Origin: a virus
Lineage: Duplodnaviria > Caudoviricetes
DNA: 64,000 nt
Direction: 5' to 3' (one strand)
IMG/VR virus record: IMGVR_UViG_3300030202_001434
Location: 1,233 to 65,232 of that record
Below are positions 1 to 64,000 of the stretch, in pieces (positions within the stretch are counted from its first letter, which is position 1; the number at the start of each line of letters is the position of its first letter). The position numbers and the translations under genes were made by a program. The notes under the pieces were generated by a model that was not told the DNA's origin, did not search any database, and saw only the letters and a program-made list of their open reading frames with translations.

Positions 1-96
1 GAGTTTTTAACTGACGGCGAAATGCTAGATATAGTATTAGATCAATTAAAAAATCTAACCGCGATAAAACATCGTTTAAACGCACCGAAATCATGA
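1..96 (+). CDS. hypothetical early protein, 5'-truncated
   Basis: Frame 1 open from window edge (EFLTDGEMLDIVLDQLKNLTAIKHRLNAPKS*); TGA overlaps the next ATG. Confidence 0.5.
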   Translation, partial: EFLTDGEMLDIVLDQLKNLTAIKHRLNAPKS

Positions 97-278
97 ATTA
101 TTGGCAAGAAGATGCGTGGTGTACGTTACAAACAGAAACAGATGAAGTGTTAGACGTTAATCTTTGGACTGACGACAACACAGGTAAACAATACATAACC
201 TTTTATCCTACATTGAGCAACGATGTATCCAAAGCAAATAAAGTCGTGGCTCATTATAGAGTAATTAAAGAAGAATAA
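93..278 (+). CDS. hypothetical early protein
   Basis: ORF track; coupled to neighbours. Confidence 0.65.
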   Translation: MNYWQEDAWCTLQTETDEVLDVNLWTDDNTGKQYITFYPTLSNDVSKANKVVAHYRVIKEE

Positions 279-279
279 T

Positions 280-489
280 ATGTATGAGATAGAAATTAAC
301 GACACAATTAAAACAACTTTAATGTTTGTTTACACAGAGACAGATGACCCAGAACACGAAGATTATGTTTTTTGTTTTGAAGAAGTCAGAGATATGATTA
401 AACAACACAATAATTATTTTGACACTAATTATAAAACAATTCAGGAGTTTAATAATAACGAGCCACATAGAAAAATTGTATTAATATGA
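280..489 (+). CDS. hypothetical early protein
   Basis: ORF track; tightly packed. Confidence 0.65.
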   Translation: MYEIEINDTIKTTLMFVYTETDDPEHEDYVFCFEEVRDMIKQHNNYFDTNYKTIQEFNNNEPHRKIVLI

Positions 490-728
490 ATGTAAAAGGA
501 ACTTATGTCATCATTGACGATATGGGGTGTTATGAAATTGAAGTAGACTATGAGTACTACCACAAAGCCCCCACACATTATGACCCGTTCGAGGACAGGT
601 TAGATATTAAAGAAGTACGTTTAAACGGAGTGGATATGACTAAATTTTATTGGGACTATCTTAACGAAGATATGTTCGATGAAGTTTATCAGTATGCTTA
701 TGATAATAGATATGTAAAATATGAGTAG
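486..728 (+). CDS. hypothetical acidic early protein
   Basis: ORF track; ATGA overlap with previous gene. Confidence 0.7.
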   Translation: MNVKGTYVIIDDMGCYEIEVDYEYYHKAPTHYDPFEDRLDIKEVRLNGVDMTKFYWDYLNEDMFDEVYQYAYDNRYVKYE

Positions 729-993
729 AAAAAAAGAAGTTAAAACAGAGTACAGATACTCTGACTACAGAGGTAGTGAAATTATCTGGTCAACAGAAGA
801 CATTGAGGCGATCGCTGAAGAATTAGGGATTACTTATTTAGACTTTGATGACTATGATAAAATTCTGCACGATACATTTAAAAACTATGGTGTAGACATT
901 ATGGACTCCTTGCGTGATTGGTTTGTAGCACAGACATGGAATCATGCAAAGGCTTTACAAGTAGAATATAATAAAAAAAATAAAGATGAATAG
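721..993 (+). CDS. hypothetical early protein
   Basis: ORF track; overlapping start/stop. Confidence 0.7.
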   Translation: MSRKKEVKTEYRYSDYRGSEIIWSTEDIEAIAEELGITYLDFDDYDKILHDTFKNYGVDIMDSLRDWFVAQTWNHAKALQVEYNKKNKDE

Positions 994-1132
994 AGATATA
1001 AGAAAAATTATAGTAATGTTAGATAATGTCTATGAAGAAATATTAGATACCTGTACGGAATCTGATGAAAGAGAGGAAGTGCTGAGTAAAATAGACGATG
1101 TTCAATATTTAATAGAAGACTTAGATGAGTAA
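986..1132 (+). CDS. small acidic hypothetical protein (48 aa, not in ORF track)
   Basis: Hand translation MNRDIRKIIVMLDNVYEEILDTCTESDEREEVLSKIDDVQYLIEDLDE*; overlaps both neighbours. Confidence 0.55.
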   Translation: MNRDIRKIIVMLDNVYEEILDTCTESDEREEVLSKIDDVQYLIEDLDE

Positions 1133-1289
1133 AAAATTTAGAAAACCTAGTAAGTTAGACAGAGTGTTTAAACGACAGGGACGTAACAGAACTCAAGATG
1201 TTCTGGGGGCAATCTTTGAAGCCTATACACAATCACAATTAAATCAAATCGATAAAAATTATGAAAAAGAAAAGACAATACCGCAGTAA
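1125..1289 (+). CDS. small hypothetical protein (54 aa, not in ORF track)
   Basis: Hand translation MSKKFRKPSKLDRVFKRQGRNRTQDVLGAIFEAY...IPQ*. Confidence 0.5.
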   Translation: MSKKFRKPSKLDRVFKRQGRNRTQDVLGAIFEAYTQSQLNQIDKNYEKEKTIPQ

Positions 1290-1404
1290 TCAAGGTAGAA
1301 GTCCTGAAAAAGAGAAAGAAATTTTCAAGACTTTGAACGTTACAATTAAAGTAATGCTGATCGTCAGCATTATATTATCATTAACTTTTTTAATATCAGG
1401 ATAA
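1261..1404 (+). CDS. small membrane protein (47 aa, not in ORF track)
   Basis: MKKKRQYRSNQGRSPEKEKEIFKTLNVTIKVMLIVSIILSLTFLISG*; C-terminal hydrophobic helix; TAATG coupling to next ORF. Confidence 0.6.
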   Translation: MKKKRQYRSNQGRSPEKEKEIFKTLNVTIKVMLIVSIILSLTFLISG

Positions 1405-1610
1405 TGTATTTCAATAAATCAAAAGTAGAATTAGTAGGATTAATTTTAGAAAAAGATGATGAACTTATTGATCTAAGAAAACAATTAAAATTTTATAAAA
1501 AGAAATATCAAGAGTGTAATGAGTGGGGAAGCGGGGAAGAATATATGTCAGGCTCTGTTCCTTTAAAAAAACTTTTACCTGTGCTAGGAATTAATAAAAA
1601 ATTAAAGTAA
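1404..1610 (+). CDS. hypothetical coiled-coil protein
   Basis: ORF track. Confidence 0.6.
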   Translation: MYFNKSKVELVGLILEKDDELIDLRKQLKFYKKKYQECNEWGSGEEYMSGSVPLKKLLPVLGINKKLK

Positions 1611-1703
1611 ATTTACATTCTTATGAAAAATAATGATCCTGAATTAGAAATCGAATATGGAACAGAATTCCTGTTTATATAGTTAGTTGTTTGTTTTAAA
1701 GAA

Positions 1704-1742
1704 GCCGAACCCCCTTGTGAAAGCATGGGGGATTTGGTGGTA
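1704..1742 (+). other. GC-rich GAAA-tetraloop hairpin ending in TTTGGTGGTA (copy 1)
   Basis: CCGAA-CCCCC-TTGT-GAAA-GCAT-GGGGG-A-TTTGG-TGGTA; same architecture at 63370-63409. Confidence 0.6.
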
Positions 1743-1760
1743 GAAATCAAATCTAATTAA

Positions 1761-2060
1761 ATGAAAAGAGAAATTTTTGACTATTACGCTTCGGCTATTG
1801 CAAAGCAATTCAACATAACCTTAAAAGAATTGTTTACTCAAACAAAATTAAGTCATATTGTAGATGCCAGACAATTACTTTACCTTCTTTGTATCCAAAG
1901 AAATTTTAAAAAAAGTTACATTAAAACTTTCCTAGCTGAAAACGGATATGTAGTTTCACATTCTACTATAAAGTACGGAGTAGAACAGGCTGAAAAGTTA
2001 ATTGAATCAGACCCTGACTTTGCTACTATGATCAAAAAAATACAAGAGAATGATAATTGA
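1761..2060 (+). CDS. DnaA domain IV-like helix-turn-helix DNA-binding protein
   Basis: IVDARQLLYLLC...SHSTIKYGVEQ resembles the DnaA C-terminal (ARQ...DHSTV) pattern. Confidence 0.6.
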   Translation: MKREIFDYYASAIAKQFNITLKELFTQTKLSHIVDARQLLYLLCIQRNFKKSYIKTFLAENGYVVSHSTIKYGVEQAEKLIESDPDFATMIKKIQENDN

Positions 2061-2463
2061 AGACTTAGAATATATTTTTCATCAAGCCCTTCAAGATAAT
2101 AAAGCTATCGAGACTAAAACAAATAAAGTACATTCTGTTATAGCTAACGGAATTAAAATACAAAAGTTTTCTGATCGTATAGAAATATTAAACATGGGTA
2201 AAGGTGGGGATTATTTTAAAGAATGTTCTGCTGAAGAGTATGATTTTTTTTATGAAGACGGATGGCTGATAGGTTGTTATAGAGTTAAACTAAATAACTG
2301 CCTTCATAAACTTAAAATTATTGAAGAGAAAATTAAAACTGAAGTCAACACAAGAAAGAATGACAAACATATTCAAAACTTAAAGAGTAGAAGAGAATCA
2401 ATTCTTAAAAAGTATACAATCAATAAAAATAAATTAAATCAAATCAAATCAAAATATGAGTAA
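2050..2463 (+). CDS. hypothetical protein
   Basis: ORF track. Confidence 0.7.
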   Translation: MIIEDLEYIFHQALQDNKAIETKTNKVHSVIANGIKIQKFSDRIEILNMGKGGDYFKECSAEEYDFFYEDGWLIGCYRVKLNNCLHKLKIIEEKIKTEVNTRKNDKHIQNLKSRRESILKKYTINKNKLNQIKSKYE

Positions 2464-3049
2464 ATCTAAATCAGTTTTCGAGACATTGAATAGCATCAAT
2501 GTTAGCGATAAGATAGAGAAGAAAGGGAATCTATCTTACTTGTCTTGGGCTTGGGCTTGGGCGGAACTAAAAAAACACTACCCTACATCTACCTATACAA
2601 TCTATGAAAACAATGATGGTTTAAATTATCATCATGATGGAAGGACTGCATGGGTTAAAACAGGAGTTACAATAGACGAAATGGAAAACATTGAGTATCT
2701 CCCTGTAATGAATAACAGAAATAAATCAATTCCTGTGGGACAAATAACATCCTTTGATGTTAATTCTTCAATACAAAGAAGTCTTACCAAAGCTATTGCA
2801 CGACATGGACTTGGCTTATATGTTTATGCGGGTGAAGATCTTCCGCAAGACACTGAACCTGAAAAAACTATAAAACCTAAAAACACAATAACTGAAATTA
2901 CATTAAACGTTAATGATGATAATTGGGAAAAGGTTATGAGGTTTGTAGCTCACAATAAAACAAAAGGGTTGAAGTATATAGTTGATAAACTAAAAACTAA
3001 GTACGACATTAAAGAGGAAATAAAGCAAGAAATAGCGAAACATGTATAG
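2456..3049 (+). CDS. Sak/Rad52-like ssDNA annealing protein (DUF1071-like)
   Basis: LSYLSWAWAW and NSSIQRSLTKAIARHGLGLYVYAGEDLP motifs. Confidence 0.85.
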   Translation: MSKSKSVFETLNSINVSDKIEKKGNLSYLSWAWAWAELKKHYPTSTYTIYENNDGLNYHHDGRTAWVKTGVTIDEMENIEYLPVMNNRNKSIPVGQITSFDVNSSIQRSLTKAIARHGLGLYVYAGEDLPQDTEPEKTIKPKNTITEITLNVNDDNWEKVMRFVAHNKTKGLKYIVDKLKTKYDIKEEIKQEIAKHV

Positions 3050-3788
3050 TTTAAACGCTCCCCTTGATGAAGTTGTAGAGCATCTACAGGATGACTCTAA
3101 ATACTACGGCGAATATGGTAAACAATTTTTATCTAATTCAGATATTAGTAAGTTATTGTACTCTCCTAATGAATTTGGCAAACCTACTCCGAAAACAAAA
3201 GAATTAGTGATGGGTTCGTATTTTCATACTGCAATGTTAGAACCTGATAAATTAAAAACATATGAAATTATAGAGGCTTCTAGTAGAAGTACTAAAATTT
3301 ATAAAGAAAGTGTTCCTGAAGGAGAGTTTTATTTATTACAAAAAGAAGCTGATCAGGTCATGACTTGGGTTGACAAAATGAAATCAAATTTACAAATGTT
3401 TGATTATATTTATGCTGAAGGCAATCAGTATGAACGACCCGCGGTTGATAAAATTATGGGAAATTTTTGGAAAGGTAAAGCTGATATACTTACAGACGAA
3501 TTTATTATTGACATTAAAACCACCACAAAAGTTCATGACTTTAAGTGGAAATGTAATACTTATAATTATGATAGTCAAGCGTACCTTTATCAAAGGTTGT
3601 TTAAACGCCAGATGATTTTTTTCGTAATTGATAAGGATACTCTTCAATTAAAAATCTGCGATTGTTCGCCAGAATTTATAGAAAGAGGTAAAGAAAAAGT
3701 AGAAAAAGCAACACATGAATTCAATTCTTTTTATGGCGAGAACGCGACAAAGAATCCTGAAAACTTTGTTATTCAGGAAACTCTCTAA
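3042..3788 (+). CDS. PD-(D/E)XK exonuclease (RecE/exonuclease VIII-like)
   Basis: LSNSDI, GSYFHTAMLEP, KGKADIL...IIDIKTT, YDSQAYLY motifs; adjacent to annealing protein. Confidence 0.8.
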   Translation: MYSLNAPLDEVVEHLQDDSKYYGEYGKQFLSNSDISKLLYSPNEFGKPTPKTKELVMGSYFHTAMLEPDKLKTYEIIEASSRSTKIYKESVPEGEFYLLQKEADQVMTWVDKMKSNLQMFDYIYAEGNQYERPAVDKIMGNFWKGKADILTDEFIIDIKTTTKVHDFKWKCNTYNYDSQAYLYQRLFKRQMIFFVIDKDTLQLKICDCSPEFIERGKEKVEKATHEFNSFYGENATKNPENFVIQETL

Positions 3789-3936
3789 GTTATTCTACAT
3801 AGAGAACACAACACGAAAAGGGGTGATGTGGGTAGATGTTCCAACTACCTGTAAGTCCCGAGAAGAGAAAGACATAATACTCTTCGATGCAATTAATAGA
3901 TTGGAACAAGAAATAAAAATTATCAATAATGAGTGA
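3733..3936 (+). CDS. hypothetical protein (start uncertain)
   Basis: Part of ORF-track 3715..3936; fills the gap and its stop overlaps the next start. Confidence 0.45.
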   Translation: MARTRQRILKTLLFRKLSKLFYIENTTRKGVMWVDVPTTCKSREEKDIILFDAINRLEQEIKIINNE

Positions 3937-4168
3937 ACAACAAAAAACGGAGCAACCAATATTCGTTGGAAATGGAGTATCCAAATTTGATGGCAACTTA
4001 ATAGAGATATCGGTTTGTTTAAACGATGTCGAGCCACACAAGTTTGAGTACAATGGTAAATGGTATACTAAATTAAAGGTTAACAAGAAAAAAGAAGTTG
4101 ATCAGTACGGAAAAACACATTCTGTTTCTATCAACACATGGAAGCCTGAACCAAAAGACGAATTTTAA
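3929..4168 (+). CDS. putative small ssDNA-binding protein
   Basis: KKEVDQYGKTHSVSINTWKP, acidic tail ending in F; recombination module context. Confidence 0.55.
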   Translation: MSEQQKTEQPIFVGNGVSKFDGNLIEISVCLNDVEPHKFEYNGKWYTKLKVNKKKEVDQYGKTHSVSINTWKPEPKDEF

Positions 4169-4184
4169 CAACTCCAATATTAAG

Positions 4185-4233
4185 AAGGGGAAAGAAAGTT
4201 TAAGATTGCACTTCCATCTTTCCCTTTTTTTTT
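4185..4233 (+). terminator. intrinsic terminator-like hairpin upstream of primase-helicase
   Basis: GGGAAAGA...TCTTTCCC followed by T9. Confidence 0.55.
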
Positions 4234-4247
4234 AATTTAAATCAAAC

Positions 4248-6656
4248 ATGCAAATAACTATATTTAAAGATATTAAAGAAACTTCTCAGCCTTTTTATAG
4301 AAATGTAGAAATAATAATTAAAAGAATTAGAGAAGGTTCATCAAAAGATCTTATTAAAAAAATTAGATCAGAAAGGAATAAAGACAATATAAATAGATTA
4401 AAACAAAAACTTCCCGCAATTTGTTTTAGTGGTACATTCAATAAAAGAAACGACAATTCATTAAAAGAACACAGCGGTTTAATTTGTTTAGATTTTGACG
4501 GATATCCATCTAACAAAGCAATGTTAATGGAAAAAGAAAAGCTTAGTAAAGACAAATATGTTTATTGTGTTTTTATATCACCAAGCGGAAAAGGTTTAAA
4601 AGCTTTAGTTAAAATTCCTGCTGACCCAGAAAATCATAAAAATTACTTCAATAGTTTAGAAGAGTATTTTAATTCAGAATATTTTGATAAAACCTCAAAA
4701 AATATATCAAGAGTTTGTTATGAATCTTACGATCCTTTAATACATGTCAATCATAATTCAAATACATGGGATCAAATTTATGAAGAACAATACACTGAGG
4801 TTGAAAAGAATGTAGATTTACCAACTATACCTATCACAGATGAAAATAAAATTGTAGATATACTTACTAAGTGGTGGCAAAAAAAATATCCAATGGTTGA
4901 GGGACAAAGAAACCATAATGTTTATGTTCTTGCGTCTGCATTCAATGACTTTGGTGTTTCAAAAACTTTAGCCGAGTATGTTTTAAATAGCTACGCTAGT
5001 CGAGATTTTAATAAAACAGAAATTAAAAGAACAATAACATCTGCTTATCAGCAAGTTCAGAACTTTGGTACAAAGTATTATGAAGATGAAGAAAAGGTTG
5101 ATAAAGTTAGAGCTAAATTAAAAAGAGGAGTTCCAAAAAAAGAAATCCGATCTGAATTAGAAGATTCGAAAATTGAGATCGGGGTTATTGATAATGTTAT
5201 TACTCGAATCGAAGAAGAACAATCGAACTCTAAGTTTTGGACACAATCTGACAAAGGTGTAATAAAAATTGTACACATTTATTTTAAAAATTTTTTAGAA
5301 GAACATGGGTTTTATAAGTTTAATCCACAAGGAAGCAAGAATTATGTATTTGTTAAGGTTACTAATAATTTAATTGATCATACATCTGAAAAAGAAATAA
5401 AAGATTTTATACTTAATTATTTAATTGATCTAGATGAATTTCAGGCATATAACTACTTTGCCGAAAACACACGGTATTTTAGAGAAGAGTTTCTAACCTT
5501 ACTATCTTCTATTGATGTTTATTTTATCGAGGATACAAAGACTACAGCGTATCTTTACTTTAATAATTCTGCTGTTAAAATTACATACGACTCTATTACA
5601 GCAATAGATTATTTAGATTTAGGTGGTTATGTTTGGAAAGATCATGTAATAGACAGACCCTACATAAAATGTGATTCTACTGATTGTGATTATAAAACAT
5701 TTATCAATAACATATGCGGTAATGAAGATAGTAGGATTAAATCTATGAAGTCTACAATAGGATATCTTTTACATGCATGGAAAAATTTATCTTACTGCCC
5801 TGCAACTATTTTAAACGATGAAGTAATTTCAGATAATCCTGAAGGTGGAACAGGTAAAGGATTGTTTATGAACGCTTTGTCACATATGAAGAAATTAGTT
5901 GTGATTGATGGTAAATCTTTTAATTTTGAAAAAAGTTTTGCTTATCAGCTTGTAAGCGCTGACACACAAATACTTTGTTTTGATGATGTTAGCAAGCATT
6001 TTAATTTTGAAAGGTTATTTTCTGTGGTGACAGAAGGATTAACTTTAGAAAAGAAAAATAAAGATGCAATTAAAATACCTTTCAGCAAATCTCCTAAAGT
6101 GTGTATAACAACAAATTATGCTATAAAAGGTAAAGGGAGTTCGTTTGAAAGAAGAAAATGGGAGCTAGAATTAGCTCAACATTATACGAAAGAGTTTACT
6201 CCCTTAAAAGAGTTTGGTAAATTAATGTTTGGCGAATGGAATGAAGATGAATGGTGTAGCTTTGATAACTTTATGATCGAATGTTTGCAAATTTATCTAG
6301 ATCATGGTTTGATCAGAAGTCAGTTTGTTAATTTAAAAATCAGAAGATTGTCTGCTGAAACATGTCATGAATTTATTGAGTGGTGTGGATTGGTTAAAGG
6401 TTTGCCCCCTAACGAAAAGTTAGTAGTAAATAAAAAAATATATAAGCAAGAGTTGTACATGGATTTTATAGAAGACAATCCAGACTTTGCGCCTAAAGCT
6501 AAAATGACAGTCTCTAGAATAAAATTTAATAAGTGGCTTATTGCTTATAATCAATTTAAATATGATTGTGATCCTGAAGAAGGTAGAGATACTTCAAGAT
6601 GGATAAGGTTCAGGCATAAACAAGAATTAGAAGTTAACGGAGAAATAGAATTTTAA
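4248..6656 (+). CDS. primase-helicase (BT4734/VirE-N primase-like domain, PriCT, SF3-type helicase)
   Basis: LPAICFSGTF, SGLICLDFD, FISPSGKGLK, EGQRNHNVY; Walker A EGGTGKGL; Walker B ILCFDDV; ITTN. Confidence 0.85.
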   Translation: MQITIFKDIKETSQPFYRNVEIIIKRIREGSSKDLIKKIRSERNKDNINRLKQKLPAICFSGTFNKRNDNSLKEHSGLICLDFDGYPSNKAMLMEKEKLSKDKYVYCVFISPSGKGLKALVKIPADPENHKNYFNSLEEYFNSEYFDKTSKNISRVCYESYDPLIHVNHNSNTWDQIYEEQYTEVEKNVDLPTIPITDENKIVDILTKWWQKKYPMVEGQRNHNVYVLASAFNDFGVSKTLAEYVLNSYASRDFNKTEIKRTITSAYQQVQNFGTKYYEDEEKVDKVRAKLKRGVPKKEIRSELEDSKIEIGVIDNVITRIEEEQSNSKFWTQSDKGVIKIVHIYFKNFLEEHGFYKFNPQGSKNYVFVKVTNNLIDHTSEKEIKDFILNYLIDLDEFQAYNYFAENTRYFREEFLTLLSSIDVYFIEDTKTTAYLYFNNSAVKITYDSITAIDYLDLGGYVWKDHVIDRPYIKCDSTDCDYKTFINNICGNEDSRIKSMKSTIGYLLHAWKNLSYCPATILNDEVISDNPEGGTGKGLFMNALSHMKKLVVIDGKSFNFEKSFAYQLVSADTQILCFDDVSKHFNFERLFSVVTEGLTLEKKNKDAIKIPFSKSPKVCITTNYAIKGKGSSFERRKWELELAQHYTKEFTPLKEFGKLMFGEWNEDEWCSFDNFMIECLQIYLDHGLIRSQFVNLKIRRLSAETCHEFIEWCGLVKGLPPNEKLVVNKKIYKQELYMDFIEDNPDFAPKAKMTVSRIKFNKWLIAYNQFKYDCDPEEGRDTSRWIRFRHKQELEVNGEIEF
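5135..5210 (+). promoter_or_regulatory. putative -1 programmed ribosomal frameshift signal
   Basis: A_AAA_AAA 5135-5141; stem CCGATCT 5147-5153/AGATCGG 5176-5182; loop GATTCGA 5163-5169 pairs with TCGAATC 5204-5210. Confidence 0.6.
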
Positions 6657-6657
6657 T

Positions 6658-7893
6658 ATGGAACTTAGAGATTATCAAAAAGAAATTGTTAGATTAAGTG
6701 TAAATGTTTTAAAAGAACACAAATTTGTTTATCTTGCTATGGAAGTTAGAACTGGCAAGACACTTACGAGTTTGAGTATAAGTAAGACTCTTGCTGTTTC
6801 TAACGTTTTATTTATTACCAAGAAAAAAGCTATATCTAGTATCCAAGATGACTATGATCTTTTAAATCCAGACTTTGATATTACTATTATTAATTACGAA
6901 TCTCTACATAAAATAGAGTGTTGCCCTTATGATGTTATTATTTGTGATGAGGCTCATGGTATGGGTGCATATCCGAAACCTAGTCGTAGAGCAAAGCTTG
7001 TAAAGTCTTTAATAAAATTAAACAAAGATCCTTATGTTATTTTATTATCTGGCACACCAACTCCTGAGTCTTATTCCCAAATGTATCATCAGGTTTTTGC
7101 TATTGAAAAGAATCCGTTTAAACAGTATAAAAACTTTTATAAGTTTGCTCATCAGTATGTTAATATTACTCAAAAAAAGATAGGGCCTACAAGTATTAAT
7201 GATTATAGTGATGGCAAAGAGTCTATCCTTTATGAAATGAAACCATATATGGTGAGCTTCACACAAAAGGAAGCGGGTTTCAAAACTGAAATTACTGAAG
7301 AAATACTGACAGTTGCCATGCATGAGTCTACTCACAACATGGTGAAGAAGTTAAAAAAAGAAAGAGTTCTACAAGGACAAATAGAAGTTGTGTTAGCTGA
7401 CACAGCTGTAAAGCTTATGTCTAAAATCCATCAGCTATATTCAGGAACTGTTAAGTTTGAAAGTGGTAGATCAGGTGTGACTGATTGGGCAAAGGCAAAA
7501 TTTATAGATGCATATTTTAGTGGTAAAAAAATTGCAATATTCTATAAGTTCAAAAAAGAATTAGAGGCAATAACAGATATATATAAAGATAAGGTCACTA
7601 CGGATCTAAAAGAATTTAAAGAAACAGACAAGTCAATAGCATTACAGATTGTTTCAGGTAGAGAAGGTATAAGTTTAAAAGAAGCTGAAGCTTTAGTGTA
7701 TTACAATATTGATTTTAGTGCTACAAGTTATTGGCAGTCAAGAGACAGGATGACTACTAAAGATAGAAAGTATAATAAAATATACTGGGTGTTTGCTGAG
7801 AATGGTATCGAACAACAGATATATAAAACTGTTATTAAGAAAAAAGATTATACTTTAAATCATTTTAAAAGAGATCTACTTACATTAAGATAA
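6658..7893 (+). CDS. SF2 (SNF2-like) helicase
   Basis: LRDYQ, MEVRTGKT, IICDEAH, LSGTP, SGREGISL, QSRDR. Confidence 0.85.
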   Translation: MELRDYQKEIVRLSVNVLKEHKFVYLAMEVRTGKTLTSLSISKTLAVSNVLFITKKKAISSIQDDYDLLNPDFDITIINYESLHKIECCPYDVIICDEAHGMGAYPKPSRRAKLVKSLIKLNKDPYVILLSGTPTPESYSQMYHQVFAIEKNPFKQYKNFYKFAHQYVNITQKKIGPTSINDYSDGKESILYEMKPYMVSFTQKEAGFKTEITEEILTVAMHESTHNMVKKLKKERVLQGQIEVVLADTAVKLMSKIHQLYSGTVKFESGRSGVTDWAKAKFIDAYFSGKKIAIFYKFKKELEAITDIYKDKVTTDLKEFKETDKSIALQIVSGREGISLKEAEALVYYNIDFSATSYWQSRDRMTTKDRKYNKIYWVFAENGIEQQIYKTVIKKKDYTLNHFKRDLLTLR

Positions 7894-8135
7894 TGACAGA
7901 ACAACAAATCCAAACCAAAAGAATTAAAGAGTTAGAAGCTGAAGGCTACTATGTTATAAAATTAATTAAGACTAATAAAAATGGGATCCCGGATCTTGTT
8001 GCGTTTCCAAAAAACTGTAATGTTTTGTTTTCTGAAATAAAAAAACCAACAGGTAAGGTATCAAAATTACAAGAATATAGATTAAAAGAGTTAGAAAGTT
8101 ATGGGTTCAGAACAGAAATATATAATGGAAAGTAA
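7893..8135 (+). CDS. VRR-NUC domain nuclease / resolvase
   Basis: MTEQQIQ, GIPDL, FSEIKKPTGKVSKLQEYR. Confidence 0.8.
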   Translation: MTEQQIQTKRIKELEAEGYYVIKLIKTNKNGIPDLVAFPKNCNVLFSEIKKPTGKVSKLQEYRLKELESYGFRTEIYNGK

Positions 8136-8385
8136 AAAACAAGAGCTTGAAGAGGCTATAGAGTATTTTAATAATTATAAAAAAAACCTTATACAGTTTT
8201 TAATACATAGCACCGCGTATCCAGGAAATAAAAAAACATGGGGTAGAGTGCGTTTAAACCCTAACGAAATATTAGGTATTCAAAAAGAGATAAGCAGGGT
8301 AGATTTGTTTATTTATGATCTTAAATTAATTAAAAATCCTAACATTTCTGTACTTAATTATTTAAATAATAAACATTTAAATTAA
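8125..8385 (+). CDS. hypothetical protein
   Basis: ORF-track 8101..8385; start moved to MESKK. Confidence 0.55.
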   Translation: MESKKQELEEAIEYFNNYKKNLIQFLIHSTAYPGNKKTWGRVRLNPNEILGIQKEISRVDLFIYDLKLIKNPNISVLNYLNNKHLN

Positions 8386-8404
8386 ATTTACTATCTTTAT
8401 AAGC

Positions 8405-8638
8405 ATGCAATACGATTATAAAGACATCGAAAAGATCAGTAATTATAAAACCTGGTCTCGTAGAAAAATAGTTGATGCACTACTTTCTATTGATTCAGAT
8501 ATGTATACTCAACTAGGTTTGGAATCCACTCCAAAAGAAATTAAACAAACTAAAATTAAATCTAAAAACATTTACAAAACCATAAGCAAGGTAAATCCCA
8601 GGTTAGGTAAATTGTTTTTACAAGCAATGGATAATTAA
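8405..8638 (+). CDS. hypothetical protein
   Basis: ORF track; TATCTTTA promoter-like variant at 8392-8399. Confidence 0.65.
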   Translation: MQYDYKDIEKISNYKTWSRRKIVDALLSIDSDMYTQLGLESTPKEIKQTKIKSKNIYKTISKVNPRLGKLFLQAMDN

Positions 8639-8648
8639 ATAAAAAACT

Positions 8649-8771
8649 ATGGCACAAGGTGTAATTGAAAACGAAATTTTTGAACATTATAGACTTGAAG
8701 AAAAAAAAGTTGTTGATGCGAAGAAACTTCTCAAAGAAAAAGGTTATATTACAATAAAAAAGAAAATATAG
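8649..8771 (+). CDS. small hypothetical protein (40 aa, not in ORF track)
   Basis: MAQGVIENEIFEHYRLEEKKVVDAKKLLKEKGYITIKKKI*; fills the gap in the operon. Confidence 0.55.
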   Translation: MAQGVIENEIFEHYRLEEKKVVDAKKLLKEKGYITIKKKI

Positions 8772-8774
8772 CCA

Positions 8775-8969
8775 ATGGCTCATAAGATTTCAGTTGATGA
8801 TGTAAATGCAATTAAGCACATTAATTATGTGACTAACAACTCTCACGACCTCGTAACTGAACTCTATGAAGACCTTATGGAGCGTGATCATAACCAAGCA
8901 AAGATCAAAGCCCAGAACATCTGTCAAATCATGACAGAGTTAATTCACTCTTTATCAGATGAAGTCTAG
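8775..8969 (+). CDS. hypothetical protein
   Basis: ORF track. Confidence 0.65.
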   Translation: MAHKISVDDVNAIKHINYVTNNSHDLVTELYEDLMERDHNQAKIKAQNICQIMTELIHSLSDEV

Positions 8970-10059
8970 GAAAGCTGAAGGCCCACGCCTTAGGTTGTCT
9001 ATGGAAGAAGTAGACATGATAAGGGAGTTAAGAGCTAATAAGATAGATAACCTTAACGACAATTCTGCTCTAACCGATCATTTAAAAGAAAGAGGTATAG
9101 ACAAGGATGATGTTATTAGTGTTAAACATTGGCAAAGCGCTAGCGGTGAGTATCGTTTTTCAATTGTAACTAAAGAGAATTTAGGTATAAAAGAGAAAGA
9201 TATATTTGATAAGGTAAATAAGTTTGTAGAAAATTATTCACCGACCTATACTCCAATAAAAAGAAAACGTCAGGTGGATCCACATCTGCTTGTAATTAAT
9301 CCTGCTGATATTCATATTGGTAAGTATGCTAAATCATTAGAGACTGGAGAAGAATATAATTCTGAAATAGCAGTCAAAAGAGTTATGGATGGGTTATATG
9401 GATTGGTAGAAAAGTCACAAGGATTTGAAATAGAAAGAGTATTGTTTTGTATTGGTAATGATGTATTACATATTGATAATGTTTATGCTACTACTACAAA
9501 AGGAACACACCAAGACACTGATGGTAAATGGTGGGAACATTATGAGCTTGCTTTAGCTTTGTATGTAGAGTGTATTGAAACGCTTCGTCAAATAGCTCCA
9601 GTAGATGTAGTTCATAGTATGAGTAACCACGATTATCAATCAGGGTTTCATTTAGCGCACACACTTCAAGCTTGGTTTAGAAAAGCTAAAGACGTTACAT
9701 TTGATGTTAGTGTGGCGCACAGAAAGTATTATCAGTACGGCACTTCTTTAATAGGTATCGAGCATGGTGATGGTGCTAAGATGGATAACCTTCCGTTGCT
9801 TATGGCGCAAGAACAACCTGCAATGTGGGCTAATACTAAGACTAGATATTGGTATCTACATCATTTGCATCATAAAGTAAAATATAAATGGAGAGACGCT
9901 AAGGACTTCATAGGAGTCACTGTAGAGTACATGAGGTCTCCTTCGGGTACTGATAGCTGGCACGCAAGAAAAGGCTATACAGGCGCTCCTAAGGCTTGTG
10001 AGGGCTTTATACACCATAAAGAACTAGGCCAGGTGGCTAGACTCACTCATTTCTTCTAA
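8959..10059 (+). CDS. calcineurin-like metallophosphoesterase
   Basis: DIHIGK, GNDVLHID, SNHD, HGD, HHLHH metal-binding motifs. Confidence 0.8.
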   Translation: MKSRKAEGPRLRLSMEEVDMIRELRANKIDNLNDNSALTDHLKERGIDKDDVISVKHWQSASGEYRFSIVTKENLGIKEKDIFDKVNKFVENYSPTYTPIKRKRQVDPHLLVINPADIHIGKYAKSLETGEEYNSEIAVKRVMDGLYGLVEKSQGFEIERVLFCIGNDVLHIDNVYATTTKGTHQDTDGKWWEHYELALALYVECIETLRQIAPVDVVHSMSNHDYQSGFHLAHTLQAWFRKAKDVTFDVSVAHRKYYQYGTSLIGIEHGDGAKMDNLPLLMAQEQPAMWANTKTRYWYLHHLHHKVKYKWRDAKDFIGVTVEYMRSPSGTDSWHARKGYTGAPKACEGFIHHKELGQVARLTHFF

Positions 10060-10296
10060 TCTCATCATTAGTTTTTTTGAATGCAACAAATCAGCACATT
10101 TCTCATACTCCTCTAAGTCTTCAAAGTATTCAATTAACTCATCAAACACCTCTTCATAATCATCTATAATATCTTTAGTAGGATCAAATATTAAAGTAAC
10201 TTTTATGTCACGATTTAATAATTGCTCGTACCCAACTTTGTTAGTTATTACATAATAACTTTGTAGCATAAAAGTATGTTCATCGAAATGTTTCAT
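10024..10296 (-). CDS. hypothetical protein with UVR-like C-terminal motif
   Basis: YFEDLEEYEKCADL; last gene of the - strand arm. Confidence 0.6.
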   Translation of the reverse strand: MKHFDEHTFMLQSYYVITNKVGYEQLLNRDIKVTLIFDPTKDIIDDYEEVFDELIEYFEDLEEYEKCADLLHSKKLMMRLEEMSESSHLA

Positions 10297-58925: not shown

Positions 58926-59408
58926 ATGAAATCTAAAGGTGTTTACCAGAGAAAACCTACTACTAGAATCAAGCCAACTCACGATTATTTAAAATATTGG
59001 AGAGTGATAAGATATTGGGTTAAGGCTAAATATGGGCTATCAACTCCAGATCTTGAAATGTTGTTGTTTCTTTACAGCGAACAAATGTTTAACAAAACAC
59101 AATTTACTAAATATGAAGAGTTGATGAGCTGGGATGTTAAACGTTTTGGTAGATTATTGAAAGATGATTGGATACATGTCTGGCGTAAAAGAAAAGGAAA
59201 TGAAACAACGCTATATGAGTTAACATACAAAGCTAAACGTATAGTGACTATGATTTATAAAAAATTAAATGGTGAGGAGATTGCAGAAACTGCACACGCT
59301 AATCCGTTATTCCGCCATGATGCTTCTTACATGGATAAGGTGTACCGTCAAAGTATTGTCGATATGAACGATTTTATAAAACAACAACGACATCTCTCTC
59401 AAGAATAA
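58926..59408 (+). CDS. winged-helix (MarR-like) DNA-binding protein, putative
   Basis: YGLSTPDLEMLLFLY...LLKDDWIHVWRKR...LYELTYKAKR. Confidence 0.6.
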   Translation: MKSKGVYQRKPTTRIKPTHDYLKYWRVIRYWVKAKYGLSTPDLEMLLFLYSEQMFNKTQFTKYEELMSWDVKRFGRLLKDDWIHVWRKRKGNETTLYELTYKAKRIVTMIYKKLNGEEIAETAHANPLFRHDASYMDKVYRQSIVDMNDFIKQQRHLSQE

Positions 59409-59631
59409 TAGTATAGGGAATATCGTGAATTAACATACTATGCCCAGCGTTTTTGTCGTAGTAAATTAAATCACCTTCACTAATTACAGTAACATCGCTA
59501 CCAGTTTTTACTACTTCACCTTTACGATATCTAAATTCATCTACGTCTGACGCTGATAATAACAGACCTGACTCAGTCTTATGTTCTTCTTCTATTTTGT
59601 TTATGATAATATATTTTCCGATTGGCTTCAT
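59374..59631 (-). CDS. groES: co-chaperonin GroES
   Basis: MKPIGKYIII...TESGLLL...GEVVKTGSDV..ISEGDLIYY...ERDVVVVL. Confidence 0.85.
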   Translation of the reverse strand: MKPIGKYIIINKIEEEHKTESGLLLSASDVDEFRYRKGEVVKTGSDVTVISEGDLIYYDKNAGHSMLIHDIPYTIILERDVVVVL

Positions 59632-59822
59632 TAGTATTGTTGTAGTTTAGGTACTCGATTATACGTTATGTTTGGCTTTTGACGTTGTTCTAAATTCCAT
59701 TTAGTTATGAAATGTCCTTCCAAATCAATTATTGTGTAGCCTTGTGAGGCTAATATCTTAATAGCTTTTATTTGTTCCTGGACTTTGTCCGGAATATTGT
59801 TGGAATCAAACAGCTCTGGCAT
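59631..59822 (-). CDS. hypothetical protein
   Basis: Coupled between groEL and groES. Confidence 0.55.
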   Translation of the reverse strand: MPELFDSNNIPDKVQEQIKAIKILASQGYTIIDLEGHFITKWNLEQRQKPNITYNRVPKLQQY

Positions 59823-61401: not shown

Positions 61402-61422
61402 TAAATTGAATTTGATTTAAAA

Positions 61423-61430
61423 CAAATATA
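61423..61430 (-). promoter_or_regulatory. Bacteroidota -7 promoter element TATATTTG
   Basis: Upstream of groEL. Confidence 0.6.
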
Positions 61431-61464
61431 GTAATTATTTGCATAAATATATAGCATAAGTTTT

Positions 61465-61752
61465 TACGTCGCATTGTCGTATTGCTAAGTGCATATTGGA
61501 ATATATATTTTTTTTTATTTTTTTTATTTTTTACTATAGTATAATAGTACTTTAAATCGACGAAAACGACGTTTTAATATATTATAGTAGTTATTTAATT
61601 GATTATCAATACTTTAACTTACGTCGACTTTTACGTCGACTTTTTTTTAATACGACAACTCTCGACGTTTTAGTAGTCAATTTAGGGTTGCCTAAAAAAA
61701 TATACTATGCATGCATAATAAATTGTAAAATATTGTATTTTAAAATCGTCGT
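61465..61752. repeat. AT-rich non-coding region with CGAC/GTCG repeats and tandem TTACGTCGACTT (candidate origin)
   Basis: TTACGTCGACTT at 61619-61630 and 61631-61642; about 9 CGAC/GTCG sites. Confidence 0.5.
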
Positions 61753-61782
61753 AAAAAAAAGAGCTCAATTAAGAGCCCTTTT
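61753..61782 (-). terminator. intrinsic terminator
   Basis: GGGCTC-TTAATT-GAGCTC followed by T8 on the - strand. Confidence 0.7.
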
Positions 61783-61817
61783 CCAATCAACAATCAAAAT
61801 AGAACGAATCTATGCGG

Positions 61818-62018
61818 TTAGTATTTTAGTTGCTTTAGTATACCCTTGCGACCTTCTGCAATTTGTATACCTTCAGCTATCCTATTTATTTTTCTGTCAT
61901 TGTCTACAGCTCTTTTCATAGAAGCTGCTCTTTGAATTCCAGTCATTCCATCAGGACGATCATTGATTAGTCTACCATCCTTGATGTATAGACCGTCTAC
62001 GAAATTATCTTTTGCCAT
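61818..62018 (-). CDS. hypothetical protein, first gene of the - strand arm
   Basis: ORF track; TATATTTA promoter-like variant upstream and terminator downstream. Confidence 0.7.
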   Translation of the reverse strand: MAKDNFVDGLYIKDGRLINDRPDGMTGIQRAASMKRAVDNDRKINRIAEGIQIAEGRKGILKQLKY

Positions 62019-62140
62019 AGCTTTTTTATTTACTGTAAATATAGTGAAAATATTTTTGAGATATCAGATACATAGAGGTTGAGGGTTATATATACTTCTG
62101 AGCAACACACCCCCCAAAATAAAAACGGATTTTTTTTCGA

Positions 62141-62298
62141 CCCCGTTTAAACATCTTCATTTTTTTGTCTGATTTTTTTAGCTTTTTGGTTTAGGGTACC
62201 CGCGCACCCATGCGCACCCCCTACCGCGCCCCGTTTAAACGTTCCCCTTACCCCGTTTTACGCGCCTGTACACCTTCCCCCGTTTACCTTCCCCCGTT
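62141..62298. repeat. C-rich region with CCCCGTT repeats between the divergent arms
   Basis: CCCCGTT at 62141, 62229, 62251, 62278, 62292; GCGCACCC twice. Confidence 0.6.
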
Positions 62299-62513
62299 CT
62301 TTACACGCTCAGAGGTAAAGAGTAAAGCCACCCCGACCCGATCAGATCACAAACAAAACACCCCCAAAGAATTACAGATAAACAACAGGTTAACAGAGAA
62401 TTAAACATATTGTTAAGCCTGTAACAAGTACCAAACAAAAAAATTTTCCTCTGTTGGAGTGCGTTTAAACATAAATTAATTAAGAATTTGTTTTGAATTT
62501 GTCATTAATTAAT

Positions 62514-62521
62514 TACATTTG
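62514..62521 (+). promoter_or_regulatory. early promoter, -7 element TACATTTG
   Basis: TAnnTTTG with TTTG boxes upstream, ahead of the first + strand gene. Confidence 0.65.
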
Positions 62522-62544
62522 TATAAATATTTAAAAAAATAACT

Positions 62545-62751
62545 ATGAAAAAATTTACTATTATTTACTTAACATTTACGACATTTTTTATAGTGTTGGC
62601 GGTGTTCAAAATGATTTTAAGCATTGCGACAGAAATAGAGACTTTATCGCATGCGCTTTTATTCGCGCTTTTCTTCGCATTTATCTTGCTTAGTACGTTT
62701 GTACTTTGTAAGCTAGTTTTTAACCTAATTAACGAAACTTTTAACAAATAA
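62545..62751 (+). CDS. small two-TM membrane protein
   Basis: Two hydrophobic helices; first gene of the early arm. Confidence 0.6.
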   Translation: MKKFTIIYLTFTTFFIVLAVFKMILSIATEIETLSHALLFALFFAFILLSTFVLCKLVFNLINETFNK

Positions 62752-62753
62752 TT

Positions 62754-63353
62754 ATGACAAACACACAAACAAACCGCGAAACATGGCTACACCTTGCAAA
62801 AGTGGAGCTACAAAAAGACATTTTCACCCCTGCAAAATTAACCATTCCTTCAGATGTTCAAATTTCTGTTGGATTTATGCACGGCGGAAGAGGTAAACAA
62901 AAAAGCGTTTTAGGGCAAAATTTCGCCCGTTTCACTAGTGAAGGAAACGTTAACAATATTATCATCAACCCCTCTTTACACGGACGCGCTAACACGCTGG
63001 ATGTTTTAGAAACTTTGGCTCATGAATTAATTCACGCCATTGACGACAACAAGAGCGGACACGGGAAAGAATTCCGACGCATGGCGCTTTCAATCGGTTT
63101 TATGTCACCCATGAGGACGACCCCCGCAAGTGAAGAGTTGAAACAAAACCTAAATAAGATCATTGAGAAAATTGGTGAGTTTCCACACGATAAAATGGAC
63201 GTATCGAATATTAAAAAACAGGGGACAAGAAATAAAAAAGTTTCTTGCCTGTGTTGTGATTTTAGTTTCAGAACGTCGCAAAAGAATATTGACAAAATGG
63301 TTGTATTAGACTGCCCCGCCTGTGAAACTGAAGACGCGCTGACAATAGTATAA
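62754..63353 (+). CDS. SprT-like zinc metalloprotease domain protein
   Basis: LAHELIHA, GHGKEFRRMA, C-terminal CxxC...CxxC zinc ribbon. Confidence 0.75.
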   Translation: MTNTQTNRETWLHLAKVELQKDIFTPAKLTIPSDVQISVGFMHGGRGKQKSVLGQNFARFTSEGNVNNIIINPSLHGRANTLDVLETLAHELIHAIDDNKSGHGKEFRRMALSIGFMSPMRTTPASEELKQNLNKIIEKIGEFPHDKMDVSNIKKQGTRNKKVSCLCCDFSFRTSQKNIDKMVVLDCPACETEDALTIV

Positions 63354-63369
63354 AGCGCGTTTAAACGCC

Positions 63370-63409
63370 CCGACACCCCGCCTAGAAATAGCGCGGGGCT
63401 TTGGTGGTA
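63370..63409 (+). other. GAAA-tetraloop hairpin ending in TTTGGTGGTA (copy 2)
   Basis: CCGA-CA-CCCCGC-CTA-GAAA-TAG-C-GCGGGG-C-TTTGG-TGGTA. Confidence 0.6.
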
Positions 63410-63446
63410 AAGGGTAATAATGCCCGTAAAATTTAAATTTATAAAC

Positions 63447-63890: not shown

Positions 63891-63902
63891 ATAAATAAAA
63901 CC

Positions 63903-64000
63903 ATGAGCAACAAAGCGAAATTTTTTCACAACATAGAGAAGGCAAAAAGACAACGTTTAAACGATGTTAAAAAGACAAATCATTTAGAGCTGTCAAAATT
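63903..64000 (+). CDS. hypothetical protein, 3'-truncated
   Basis: MSNKAKFFHNIEKAKRQRLNDVKKTNHLELSK runs off the window. Confidence 0.5.
   Translation, partial: MSNKAKFFHNIEKAKRQRLNDVKKTNHLELSK

Follow-up and report, generated by a model that had tools for sequence, protein, structure and literature searches.

The early arm and its array of word sites

The DNA analysed here (the window) is a 64-kb stretch comprising bases 1233-65232 of the 65,232-base virus record of a marine phage (G000); 99 bases are repeated at the two ends of the record. The early-gene arm of this phage carries about 15 copies of the eight-letter palindrome GTTTAAAC. An exact scan located 17 copies in the window, every one at the position given in a preliminary description of the sequence, and none of 100 dinucleotide-preserving shuffles of the window reached this number (mean 3.07, sd 1.92, max 11). 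The 1,232 bases preceding the window contain the word at record positions 54, 333, and 628; because the copy at record position 54 and that at window position 63955 are one and the same, the circular record without the overlap (65,133 bp) carries 19 unique copies. Fifteen of these lie in one contiguous 13.8-kb plus-strand early/replication arm (window 61402-64000, continued through the 1,232 bases not included in the window to window 1-10059) and four in the 51-kb late arm. The early-arm sites within the window, and the two genes at the head of the arm, are as follows (window coordinates).

62145..62152, site 1, CGTTTAAACA, intergenic, in the control region from which the GroEL arm and the early arm diverge
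62233..62240, site 2, CGTTTAAACG, within a C-rich block with five CCCGTT repeats
62463..62470, site 3, GCGTTTAAACA, intergenic, 74 nt ahead of the ATG of the ORF at 62545, which precedes the SprT-like gene
62545..62751, plus strand, ORF of 68 aa directly upstream of the SprT-like gene
62754..63353, plus strand, SprT/Spartan-like zinc metalloprotease with a C-terminal zinc ribbon, 199 aa; first sizeable early-arm gene and candidate reader of the word
63359..63366, site 4, GCGTTTAAACGC, 6 nt past the stop codon of the SprT-like gene
63955..63962, site 5, CGTTTAAACG, in the 99-bp terminal overlap (the copy at record position 54)
74..81, CGTTTAAACG, 11 nt ahead of the ATG at 93, within the preceding ORF, in the R-L-N frame
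619..626, CGTTTAAACG, in ORF 486-728, read as V-R-L-N-G; common to L009 and L107, not to G001 or G002
1166..1173, GTTTAAACG, in the small ORF 1125-1289
3049..3056, GTTTAAACGC, where the Sak-like annealing-protein gene meets the exonuclease gene
3599..3606, GTTTAAACGC, in the exonuclease gene, where the family-wide F-N/G-K-P is replaced by F-K-R-Q
4017..4024, GTTTAAACG, in ORF 3929-4168; arose by a change from C-L-S to C-L-N
7116..7123, CGTTTAAACA, in the SNF2-type helicase gene, read as P-F-K-Q
8252..8259, CGTTTAAACC, the last site of the array, in ORF 8101-8385; common to L007

The ORF called at 62210-62404, over site 2, is doubtful. Site 4 is kept in L107 within a 59-bp island of 91.5% identity, and the helicase-gene site at 7116 is present in L007 (97% identical protein) and absent at that position in the other 11 aligned relatives.

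Enrichment of the word is limited to one arm, as the preliminary description had maintained. Markov models of order 1 to 4 predict 0.73-1.29 copies in the early arm against 15 observed, and 2.29-2.89 in the late arm against 4 observed; the word is ∼12- to 20-fold enriched in the early arm and at chance in the late arm (binomial test for 15 of 19 copies in 21% of the length, p = 1.2e-7). Site density is 2.4 per kb across the first 4 kb of the arm and zero in its last 1.8 kb. An unbiased k-mer screen of the arm returned CGTTTAAAC as the clear top 9-mer (21 strand-counts versus 0.45 expected), and every one of the 13 early-arm copies in the window can be extended to CGTTTAAAC on one strand or both, against one of the four late-arm copies (16083), in agreement with the first count. 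The flanking C/G yields 10 plus-strand and 11 minus-strand 9-mers, the full form of the word being (G)CGTTTAAACG(C), and in this genome the palindrome seldom reaches past 10-12 bp. Words with one mismatch show no enrichment (0.94 per kb in the early arm versus 0.76 per kb in the late arm). The peak of density beside a presumed genome end, from which a signal on first-entering DNA had been proposed, is an effect of the contig cut: the end of the window is the 99-bp contig overlap, and the cluster runs on across the junction.

The word is under selection as DNA and not via the encoded proteins, a claim of the preliminary description that is borne out by a codon null, by the use of two reading frames, and by sites made through amino-acid replacement at otherwise conserved positions. 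Twelve of the 15 early-arm sites lie in ORFs and three are intergenic. In 2,000 within-gene synonymous-codon shuffles the coding copies averaged 1.63 (sd 1.05, max 6) versus the 12 observed, and no shuffle reached 12. The coding copies are read as xGT-TTA-AAC (7 sites) or as xxG-TTT-AAA-C (5 sites), the two frames originally noted; CGT accounts for 19 of the 164 Arg codons in the early arm. Of the 639 variant places in contigs of four runs (window 1-10100), none of the 40 listed falls in a word site.

The SprT-like gene at the head of the arm

The gene at 62754-63353, which the preliminary description did not name, is the gene that tracks the word. Profile, active-site residues, and fold all place its product in the SprT-like family. 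The protein matches the Pfam SprT-like profile (PF10263) over residues 60-118 with 34.7 bits (cut-off 25.6) and PHROG 6361 with an E value of 4e-33, and H90, E91, H94, and H103 (the HExxH motif and a third His, the third zinc ligand), as well as C165, are invariant among 15 diverse homologues, and the C-terminal ribbon bears Cys. The best PDB fold matches of an AF2 model (pLDDT 84.7) are 6MDW and 6MDX ('Mechanism of protease dependent DPC repair', E 3.7e-4 and 1.1e-3), with 162-178 aligned columns, 15-18% identity, and low TM-scores (0.35-0.39); the modelled fold matches the solved SprT domain of SPRTN, in its metalloprotease part and in its zinc-binding part. As modelled, the phage protein resembles the SPRTN/Wss1 metalloproteases in having a HExxH zincin core and a zinc-binding subdomain. 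SprT-like is the sole Pfam match at E up to 0.01, and neither NCBIfam nor PADLOC returned a match. The ribbon sequence is diverse among homologues (FSFRTSQKN, HGFNINKTR, AIWRMSRKW) whereas the word remains GTTTAAAC, and no residue-to-base code is apparent between ribbon and word, residue-level co-variation being inseparable from phylogeny.

The 68-aa ORF directly upstream, for which no family match was found, is probably co-transcribed with the SprT-like gene. About 25 nt upstream of its ATG stands a TAnnTTTG-type box, TACATTTG, a putative promoter element. Scans of 61400-64000 for sigma-70-type promoters (8 versus 9.8 expected) and for terminators (3 versus 2.0 expected) stayed at chance level, and no hit of either kind coincides with a word site.

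The family comprises 1,463 representative clusters at E up to 1e-10 among 1.84 billion proteins. It includes 153 cultured-phage records, with phages of Arthrobacter, Microbacterium, and Streptomyces among the carriers, and a Bordetella phage homologue is annotated as 'antirestriction protein'. The 'SprT-like protease' genes of actinobacteriophages belong to the same protein family as that of G000; they include gp46 of the Arthrobacter phage Lizalica, and their identity to the G000 protein is 35-40% over 97% of the length. A preprint treats the actinobacteriophage SprT-like protease as a possible regulator of the lysogeny region, with no cognate DNA word mentioned in the available part of its text (10.1101/2025.05.26.655371).

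The word tracks the SprT-like gene across unrelated phages

Among the early-arm proteins of G000, only the SprT-like protein is present in the word-rich G001 and G002 yet absent from the word-poor G005 and MW202828.1. Of 20 relatives at least 90% complete, the two with the SprT-like gene hold 46 (G001) and 42 (G002) copies of the word, and 17 without it hold 0-4. The exception is G022, a chimeric and ambiguous 105-kb record with 30 copies, 29 of them in its first 41 kb; because this portion begins inside an early arm, the position of the SprT-like gene is cut off. In G001, 33 of the 46 copies lie within the 22.4-kb locus L046 around its early arm, and the polarised enrichment first described for G000 thus recurs in relatives.

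The same association is seen in 45 phage loci picked solely by their SprT-like protein, which fall into 17 nucleotide-level groups (lineages) of 32-69% GC; only 5 of the loci share the primase backbone of G000. Thirty-one are enriched at p<1e-4, 20 of them for GTTTAAAC and 11 for a one-letter variant, GTGTAAAC (63-69% GC); 10 of the remaining 14 are enriched at p<0.01. The word GTTTAAAC is used unchanged in phages of 32% to 53% GC. Loci selected by their primase are enriched in 8 of 80 cases, of which two, L046 and L049, come from G001 and G002, the records that bear the gene. The remaining six belong to records that are 52-69% complete and gave no match to the SprT-like gene; these may be truncated ahead of the gene, as contig starts suggest for L051 and G022. 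Among the SprT-selected loci the exceptions are L106, whose gene is intact and whose 20.6 kb contain just 2 copies (p = 0.29; one within the SprT-like gene and one overlapping its stop codon), L116 (1 copy in 4.5 kb), and L111 (p = 0.03). Within 4 kb on either side of the gene, no partner family is common to more than 11 of 46 loci. Of the papers listed by literature searches, none contained GTTTAAAC or linked it with a phage SprT-like gene.

The word changes once, to GTGTAAAC in the high-GC clade. This variant is not palindromic, and its orientation is 48:16 in high-GC loci and 17:7 in Lizalica (∼3:1). A simple model of a symmetric dimer cannot account for this, and the process at GTGTAAAC may depend on orientation. 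Lizalica carries 24 copies, one of them 44 bp upstream of gp46 and several just upstream of gene starts, behind a TAGACT box. Unlike the array of G000, the actinobacteriophage sites are spread genome-wide and not over one arm.

Pooled site density climbs about fivefold at the SprT-like gene, from 0.1-0.3 per kb at -10 to -1 kb to 1.0-1.45 per kb at -1 to +4 kb, and stays elevated for several kb downstream, dropping to ∼0.5 per kb at +9 kb. The gene has flanking sites of its own: one lies at most 100 bp past the stop codon, or overlaps it, in 34 of 44 loci and 14 of 17 lineages (in several lineages the TAA within the word is the stop codon of the gene itself), and one lies at most 400 bp upstream in 26 of 42 loci. 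Arrays accrue independently in each lineage, by point changes. None of four comparable coding sites of G000 is common to G001 or G002, and 5 of the 15 sites are common to L107, the closest gene-bearing relative. In G001 and G002, non-coding DNA makes up 21-22% of the arm yet holds 13 of 32 and 15 of 30 sites, respectively; some of these intergenic copies lie in longer palindromes followed by a repeated AT-rich leader, longer hairpins being found at only about 3 of the 13-15 non-coding sites. The SprT alleles of G000 and L107 are 47% identical and the flanking DNA 84-92% identical. Homology between the two resumes at the site right past the SprT stop codon. The end of another block coincides with the site at record position 54, and the block on the GroEL side breaks off 10 bp ahead of site 1; of the 18 block ends in all, 3 are no more than 10 bp away from a word site. 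In other metagenomes, cassettes are replaced at window 282-485 and 988-997, and neither replacement adjoins a word site.

The two HTH proteins that had been put forward as readers do not track the word. Homologues of the protein at 1761 (DnaA domain-IV-like) occur in 69 of 82 loci, most of them without the word, and homologues of the protein at 58926 (SarA/MarR-like) in G005 and MW202828.1, both without a word array. The first early gene of MW202828.1 (202 aa), considered as a distant SprT-like protein, gave an hhalign probability of 0.3%, and it has no relatives in the viral collection. A scan for the 16-bp palindrome of MW202828.1 returned 11 stretches, just one of them with 4 copies; its reader is not traceable because the stretches are too few.

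Candidate readers of the word

A sequence-specific DNA-binding protein, as originally supposed, would best explain the array. Because the word co-occurs with the SprT-like gene at the head of the arm, the copies are probably docking sites of that gene's product, and we favour, with moderate confidence, a docking array on double-stranded phage DNA for the phage's own SprT-like metalloprotease. The protein would be made early, since its gene is the first sizeable one of the plus-strand arm and adjoins the divergent control region. Its C-terminal zinc ribbon, possibly together with the protease body, would read the 8-10-bp word, as the co-occurrence suggests, and binding would concentrate, and by analogy with Spartan might activate, a DNA-dependent protease along the early/replication arm. 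We speculate that the protease might then clear phage DNA of bound proteins, by removing or cutting them; host silencers, stalled polymerases, and complexes serving defence or restriction are possible targets. It might also damp early transcription, its own included, via the sites flanking its gene.

Human SPRTN binds single-stranded DNA through its zinc-binding subdomain, with no preference for sequence, and sequence-specific reading of a duplex would therefore be new for the fold. Eukaryotic SPRTN and Wss1 are recruited by DNA structure and by ubiquitin or PCNA signals, and are not known to be recruited by a sequence word; no cognate-site array is known for these proteases, and no cognate word for ArdC, the anti-restriction protein of plasmid R388. 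The protease activity of SPRTN/Wss1 depends on DNA, according to the available sections of the relevant papers (PMC5128726, PMC5127644, PMC7534798). Among characterised DNA-binding proteins with a protease domain of this kind, ArdC is the nearest; it shields incoming DNA from type I restriction in the newly entered cell and is described, in the available text, as doing so without need of protease activity (PMC7213743). Unlike ArdC, the SprT-like protein has no ssDNA-binding ArdC-N domain (Pfam, E up to 0.01).

The association of gene and word fits a functional partnership as well as direct reading. The reader might be a host protein or an unrecognised phage protein to which the protease is linked functionally, for example by bait-and-cut, SPRTN-type proteases being described as cutting DNA-bound proteins (available sections of PMC5128726, PMC5127644, PMC7534798); the variable ribbon beside a constant word, and the retention of the gene almost without an array in L106, would suit such an arrangement. 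We nevertheless consider it unlikely, as no second family accompanies the SprT-like gene in more than 11 of 46 loci, the two HTH candidates of this genome do not track the word, and the same word at 32-53% GC, with its one-letter variant at 63-69%, serves phages of very different hosts. This diversity of hosts, which include Arthrobacter, Microbacterium, and Streptomyces, makes a shared host reader in particular unlikely. The SprT-like protein could instead act mainly as a repressor of the early arm, with proteolysis secondary, at operators akin to the stoperators of Cluster A mycobacteriophages (L5 gp71, Bxb1 gp69; PMC6550527). Both arrays comprise dozens of dispersed sites that are short and exact, are linked to a single protein of the phage, and are placed at promoters and elsewhere, with a consensus that shifts between lineages, insofar as the available sections of that paper describe them; the present array spans one transcription arm starting at its control region, sites flank the gene of the would-be regulator, and the non-coding sites of G001 and G002 and the Lizalica sites ahead of gene starts are also what operators would give. 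However, stoperators are described as 20-30 asymmetric sites that are oriented with transcription ('predominantly exhibit one orientation'), block elongation, and are bound by the HTH immunity repressor of temperate phages (available sections of PMC6550527). The word of G000 is an 8-10-bp palindrome with 9-mers on both strands (10 plus versus 11 minus), lies mostly in ORFs (12 of 15 sites) of one arm, and is common to unrelated phage families, and even GTGTAAAC is oriented just ∼3:1. Presence and absence of word and gene co-vary strongly, the word itself changing once. No integrase of either family was found in this genome, which leaves no lysogenic immunity for a repressor to maintain; the protein linked to the word is a metalloprotease whose catalytic residues are intact and invariant family-wide, needlessly so for a pure repressor, and 17 of 20 near-complete relatives manage without an array. 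On this evidence a repressor role seems distinctly improbable.

T4-type phages contain promoter-stem-loop cassettes, in which a repeat between small early ORFs marks mosaic junctions. A comparable use of the word, as a short crossover or boundary sequence for the exchange of early-gene cassettes, the SprT-like gene included, is very unlikely overall. It would account for the resumption of homology with L107 at the site past a SprT allele only 47% identical, for the proximity of 3 of the 18 block ends to sites (10 bp or less; record position 54 and the GroEL side of site 1 among them), for the sites flanking the gene in most lineages, and for the G001 and G002 copies in longer palindromes with an AT-rich leader; but most copies lie inside conserved genes (exonuclease, helicase) without a cassette boundary, the strain-level swaps at 282-485 and 988-997 do not adjoin sites, 8-10 bp is short for homologous exchange, and functional sites would equally yield short conserved islands around them. 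That the word is a by-product without site function has almost no probability; it would then stem from base composition, from the usage of codons or dipeptides, or from the footprint of methylation or restriction-modification (GTTTAAAC is the PmeI site). An AT-rich arm (31.7% GC) and a word able to encode two common dipeptides, L-N and F-K, speak for such an origin, but this explanation is already contradicted by the codon-preserving shuffles (1.63 versus 12; 0 of 2,000), by the Markov expectations (at most 1.3 versus 15), by one-mismatch words that are not enriched and a late arm at chance, and by close relatives of the same composition with 0-4 copies. Restriction pressure, moreover, predicts avoidance, and the early arm shows enrichment instead.

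A real link between word and gene would give a concrete role to a small phage protein of very wide distribution, that of a protease placed on DNA by reading a word, and the array would clearly illustrate how selection can write a DNA word into coding sequence. Gene and word array together would form a simple genomic marker predicting early arms in uncultured phages, and for this window a named candidate gene replaces the idea of first-entering DNA. The link is directly testable in the cultured Arthrobacter, Microbacterium, and Streptomyces phages that bear the gene. A broader proposal, which we regard as possible though well short of probable, is that phages of several bacterial phyla possess a two-part 'address and protease' system, in which a Spartan-like protease, activated by DNA, would read a fixed 8-10-bp word on the duplex, patrol only phage DNA, and strip it of host proteins such as silencers, stalled machines, and complexes of restriction or defence. 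The phage would write the word into its own early arm even at amino-acid cost, and the gene would bring along two or three sites of its own, the array then growing by point mutation. If this is true, the Spartan-like enzyme would be the first DNA-dependent protease to be addressed by sequence, and the system would represent a new class of device by which phages counter defence or clear their genomes.

Distribution of the palindromic word

An exact scan of the window found 17 copies of the eight-letter palindrome GTTTAAAC, at coordinates identical to those in the preliminary description, versus 3.07 ± 1.92 (maximum 11) in dinucleotide shuffles of the window. The 1,232 bases of the record outside the window contribute two further copies (record positions 333 and 628), while that at record position 54 duplicates window position 63955, giving 19 unique copies in the genome. 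The record comprises 65,232 bases (the window being record bases 1233-65232) with a 99-base repeat at its two ends, and related records are also circular or end-repeated. Because the record ends repeat 99 bases, the window end is a contig junction and no known physical end, and the genome end previously presumed to lie beside the array can no longer be placed there. Gene order (ORFs and strands) defines two arms:

61402, across the junction, to 10059; plus strand; 13.8 kb; the early arm, with small ORFs, a DnaA-domain-IV-like protein, Sak annealing protein, exonuclease, primase/helicase, SNF2 helicase and a second exonuclease
51 kb; minus strand; GroEL/GroES, with large ORFs matching genes annotated in the related phage MW202828.1 as portal, terminase and structural

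The plus-strand arm holds 15 copies (0.73-1.29 expected) and the minus-strand arm 4 (2.29-2.89 expected), bearing out the polarised enrichment in the early arm noted earlier (15/19 copies, binomial p = 1.2e-7). In an unbiased screen of the arm, CGTTTAAAC ranked first among 9-mers (21 strand-counts vs 0.45 expected) and GCGTTTAAAC reached 9 vs 0.09 expected; words with one mismatch to GTTTAAAC showed no enrichment. GroEL (531 aa) and GroES (85 aa), both kept in relatives, lie at 59374-61401 (minus strand) and adjoin the divergent control region.

Selection acts on the DNA. A codon-aware null fails to explain the counts, with 12 coding copies vs 1.63 ± 1.05 (maximum 6 in 2,000) under a codon-preserving shuffle, some of the ORFs scored as coding being doubtful (e.g. 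62210-62404, within a C-rich block). The coding copies use two frames, as had been reported (7 xGT-TTA-AAC and 5 xxG-TTT-AAA-C). Homologous positions in relatives reveal that sites arose through amino-acid changes together with codon choice: the exonuclease site reads F-K-R-Q in the phage under study and F-N/G/E/K-K/R-P in 11 relatives, the site in ORF 3929 reads C-L-N vs C-L-S in 8 relatives, and the helicase site P-F-K-Q (CCG TTT AAA CAG) is common only to this phage and the 97%-identical L007. The early arm is headed by a C-rich non-coding block (62142-62300) in which CCCGTT is repeated five times over 150 bp; two of these repeats are full sites and three read CCCCGTTTTAC, CCCCCGTTTACC and CCCCCGTTCTTTAC. 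The repeats look like half-site iterons, and the block is possibly a nucleation point or origin.

Association with an SprT-like gene

The primase identified 545 relatives in the viral collection, from which 80 loci were kept; the word is enriched in 8 of these (9-33 copies per locus) and is not enriched in L008 and L009, the closest relatives with upstream cover (primase identity 86%). Whole-proteome comparison of the complete word-rich genomes G001 (46 copies) and G002 (42) with word-poor G005 (2) and MW202828.1 (0) identified a sole early-arm protein that follows the word:

62754-63353; plus strand; SprT/Spartan-like zinc-ribbon metalloprotease, 199 aa

Of the 20 relatives with a completeness of 90% or more, 2 (G001 and G002) carry the gene, and 17 that lack it contain 0-4 copies of the word. 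G022, a 105-kb record with a completeness rating of 100%, contains 30 copies, and no SprT-like gene was found in it; 29 of the 30 fall in the opening 41 kb, a part that begins within an early arm, and the word-free second part contains primase locus L044. This record looks like two related genomes joined.

The HTH proteins at 1761 and 58926, which the preliminary description had proposed as readers of the word, were ruled out because their presence does not follow the word across relatives. The latter (58926-59408, plus strand within the minus-strand arm) is a SarA/MarR-like gene of 160 aa, found in the same place in G001, G002, G005 and MW202828.1 and annotated there as a repressor, and may have a late or global regulatory role that has nothing to do with the word.

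The SprT-like protein has a conserved HExxH motif, third His and Cys-bearing C-terminal ribbon, and the best match of its AF2 model (pLDDT 84.7) is the solved SPRTN SprT domain (entries 6MDW/6MDX). The family comprises 1,463 representative clusters at E up to 1e-10. Fetching loci by this protein alone gave 45 (34-50% identity) in 17 nucleotide-level groups, with the primase backbone common to only 5 loci. GTTTAAAC is enriched at p<1e-4 in 20 of the 45 and the one-letter variant GTGTAAAC in 11 more (all 63-69% GC), and 10 of the remaining 14 reach p<0.01; enrichment is weak or absent in L106, L116, L111 and L128. The gene is also carried by cultured phages, with 70 records for Arthrobacter, 45 for Microbacterium, 11 for Streptomyces, 9 for Bordetella and 8 for Pseudomonas among them. 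In Arthrobacter phage Lizalica (67% GC) the variant word occurs 24 times (17 in one orientation), and one copy precedes the SprT-like gene gp46 by 44 bp; Lizalica's form GTGTAAACG is the counterpart of CGTTTAAACG. The actinophage homologue has been described in a preprint as an SprT-like protease whose small C-terminal domain binds DNA, and no mention of a DNA word was found there (10.1101/2025.05.26.655371). A literature search found no published account linking the gene to the word.

Anatomy and growth of the array

Aligned on the position and direction of the SprT-like gene, the pooled loci had a site density of 0.1-0.3 per kb upstream, 1.0-1.45 per kb from -1 kb to +4 kb, and down to ∼0.5 per kb at +9 kb. 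Density jumps at the gene and fades downstream, which places the gene at the front of the array, as is also seen in the window. In 34/44 loci (14/17 groups) the first 100 bp 3' of the stop codon include a site; in several lineages the TAA within the word doubles as the stop codon itself, and in the phage under study the post-stop site (63359) is 6 nt beyond it. L106, with an intact gene, has two sites only, one intragenic and one on the stop codon. L107 (primase 82% identical) has 5 of the 15 sites in common with the phage under study, and the SprT alleles of the two are 47% identical within flanking DNA of 84-92% identity. None of 4 comparable coding sites is common to this phage and G001/G002. 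Together, these observations suggest that a few private sites travel with the gene, that one allele can stand in for another, and that arrays are built up separately in each lineage through point changes. Contigs from other marine metagenomes have the small early ORF 280-489 swapped (window 282-485) for 256 other letters, and a 364-letter insertion at window 988-997, which represent strain-level cassette exchange among early genes.

Possible roles of the word

On balance, we favor a role in which the word copies would be docking sites for the SprT-like protease. Gene and word co-occur, the sites are polarised, and the gene is flanked by its own sites; binding, activation and targets of the protease are what we infer. 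The catalytic site is invariant, which speaks for the importance of proteolysis, and Spartan-type DNA-dependent proteases are among the closest functional precedents. The word could instead be read by another protein, which we consider rather unlikely; within 4 kb either side of the SprT-like gene no partner family was found, the next best occurring in 11/46 loci. A stoperator-like repressor role seems a little less likely still. Three of 18 homology-block ends lie within 10 bp of a site, as would suit a word that marks recombination boundaries, a role we regard as very improbable. That the enrichment is a compositional by-product is scarcely credible: it is contradicted by the 17 near-complete relatives that lack the gene and hold just 0-4 copies, by the codon-preserving shuffle (1.63 vs 12 coding copies), and by the early arm, where 15 copies stand against 0.73-1.29 expected and one-mismatch words are not enriched.

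In the early arms of G001 and G002 (L046 and L049 among the primase-selected loci), a repeated AT-rich leader, TTGTTTAAC-TAAAATTTATACTAT-ATG, comes after several of the intergenic sites, and some sites lie within longer palindromes of variable sequence. Site and leader resemble a unit repeated between genes, which probably serves as a promoter or translation-start region. MW202828.1 (L006, 43745-55170) lacks GTTTAAAC; in its early arm a palindrome of 16 bp, GTGTCGTTAACGACAC, occurs 14 times without mismatch, mostly ∼20 nt upstream of early-gene start codons, and has a core (CGTT-AACG) similar to the word studied here. The 202-aa product of the first early gene of MW202828.1 is no SprT-like protein, and no relatives of it were found. 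Different enriched words occur near the primase or SprT-like gene in L082, L031/L037/L038/L041, L060 and L099, namely GTCAGTTA/AGTTACAA (11-16 copies), CCTCCAGG (6-8), CATGATCC (7) and GGTTATGA/GTCATAAC (15). Word arrays may be recurrent in early arms, with the words themselves interchangeable.
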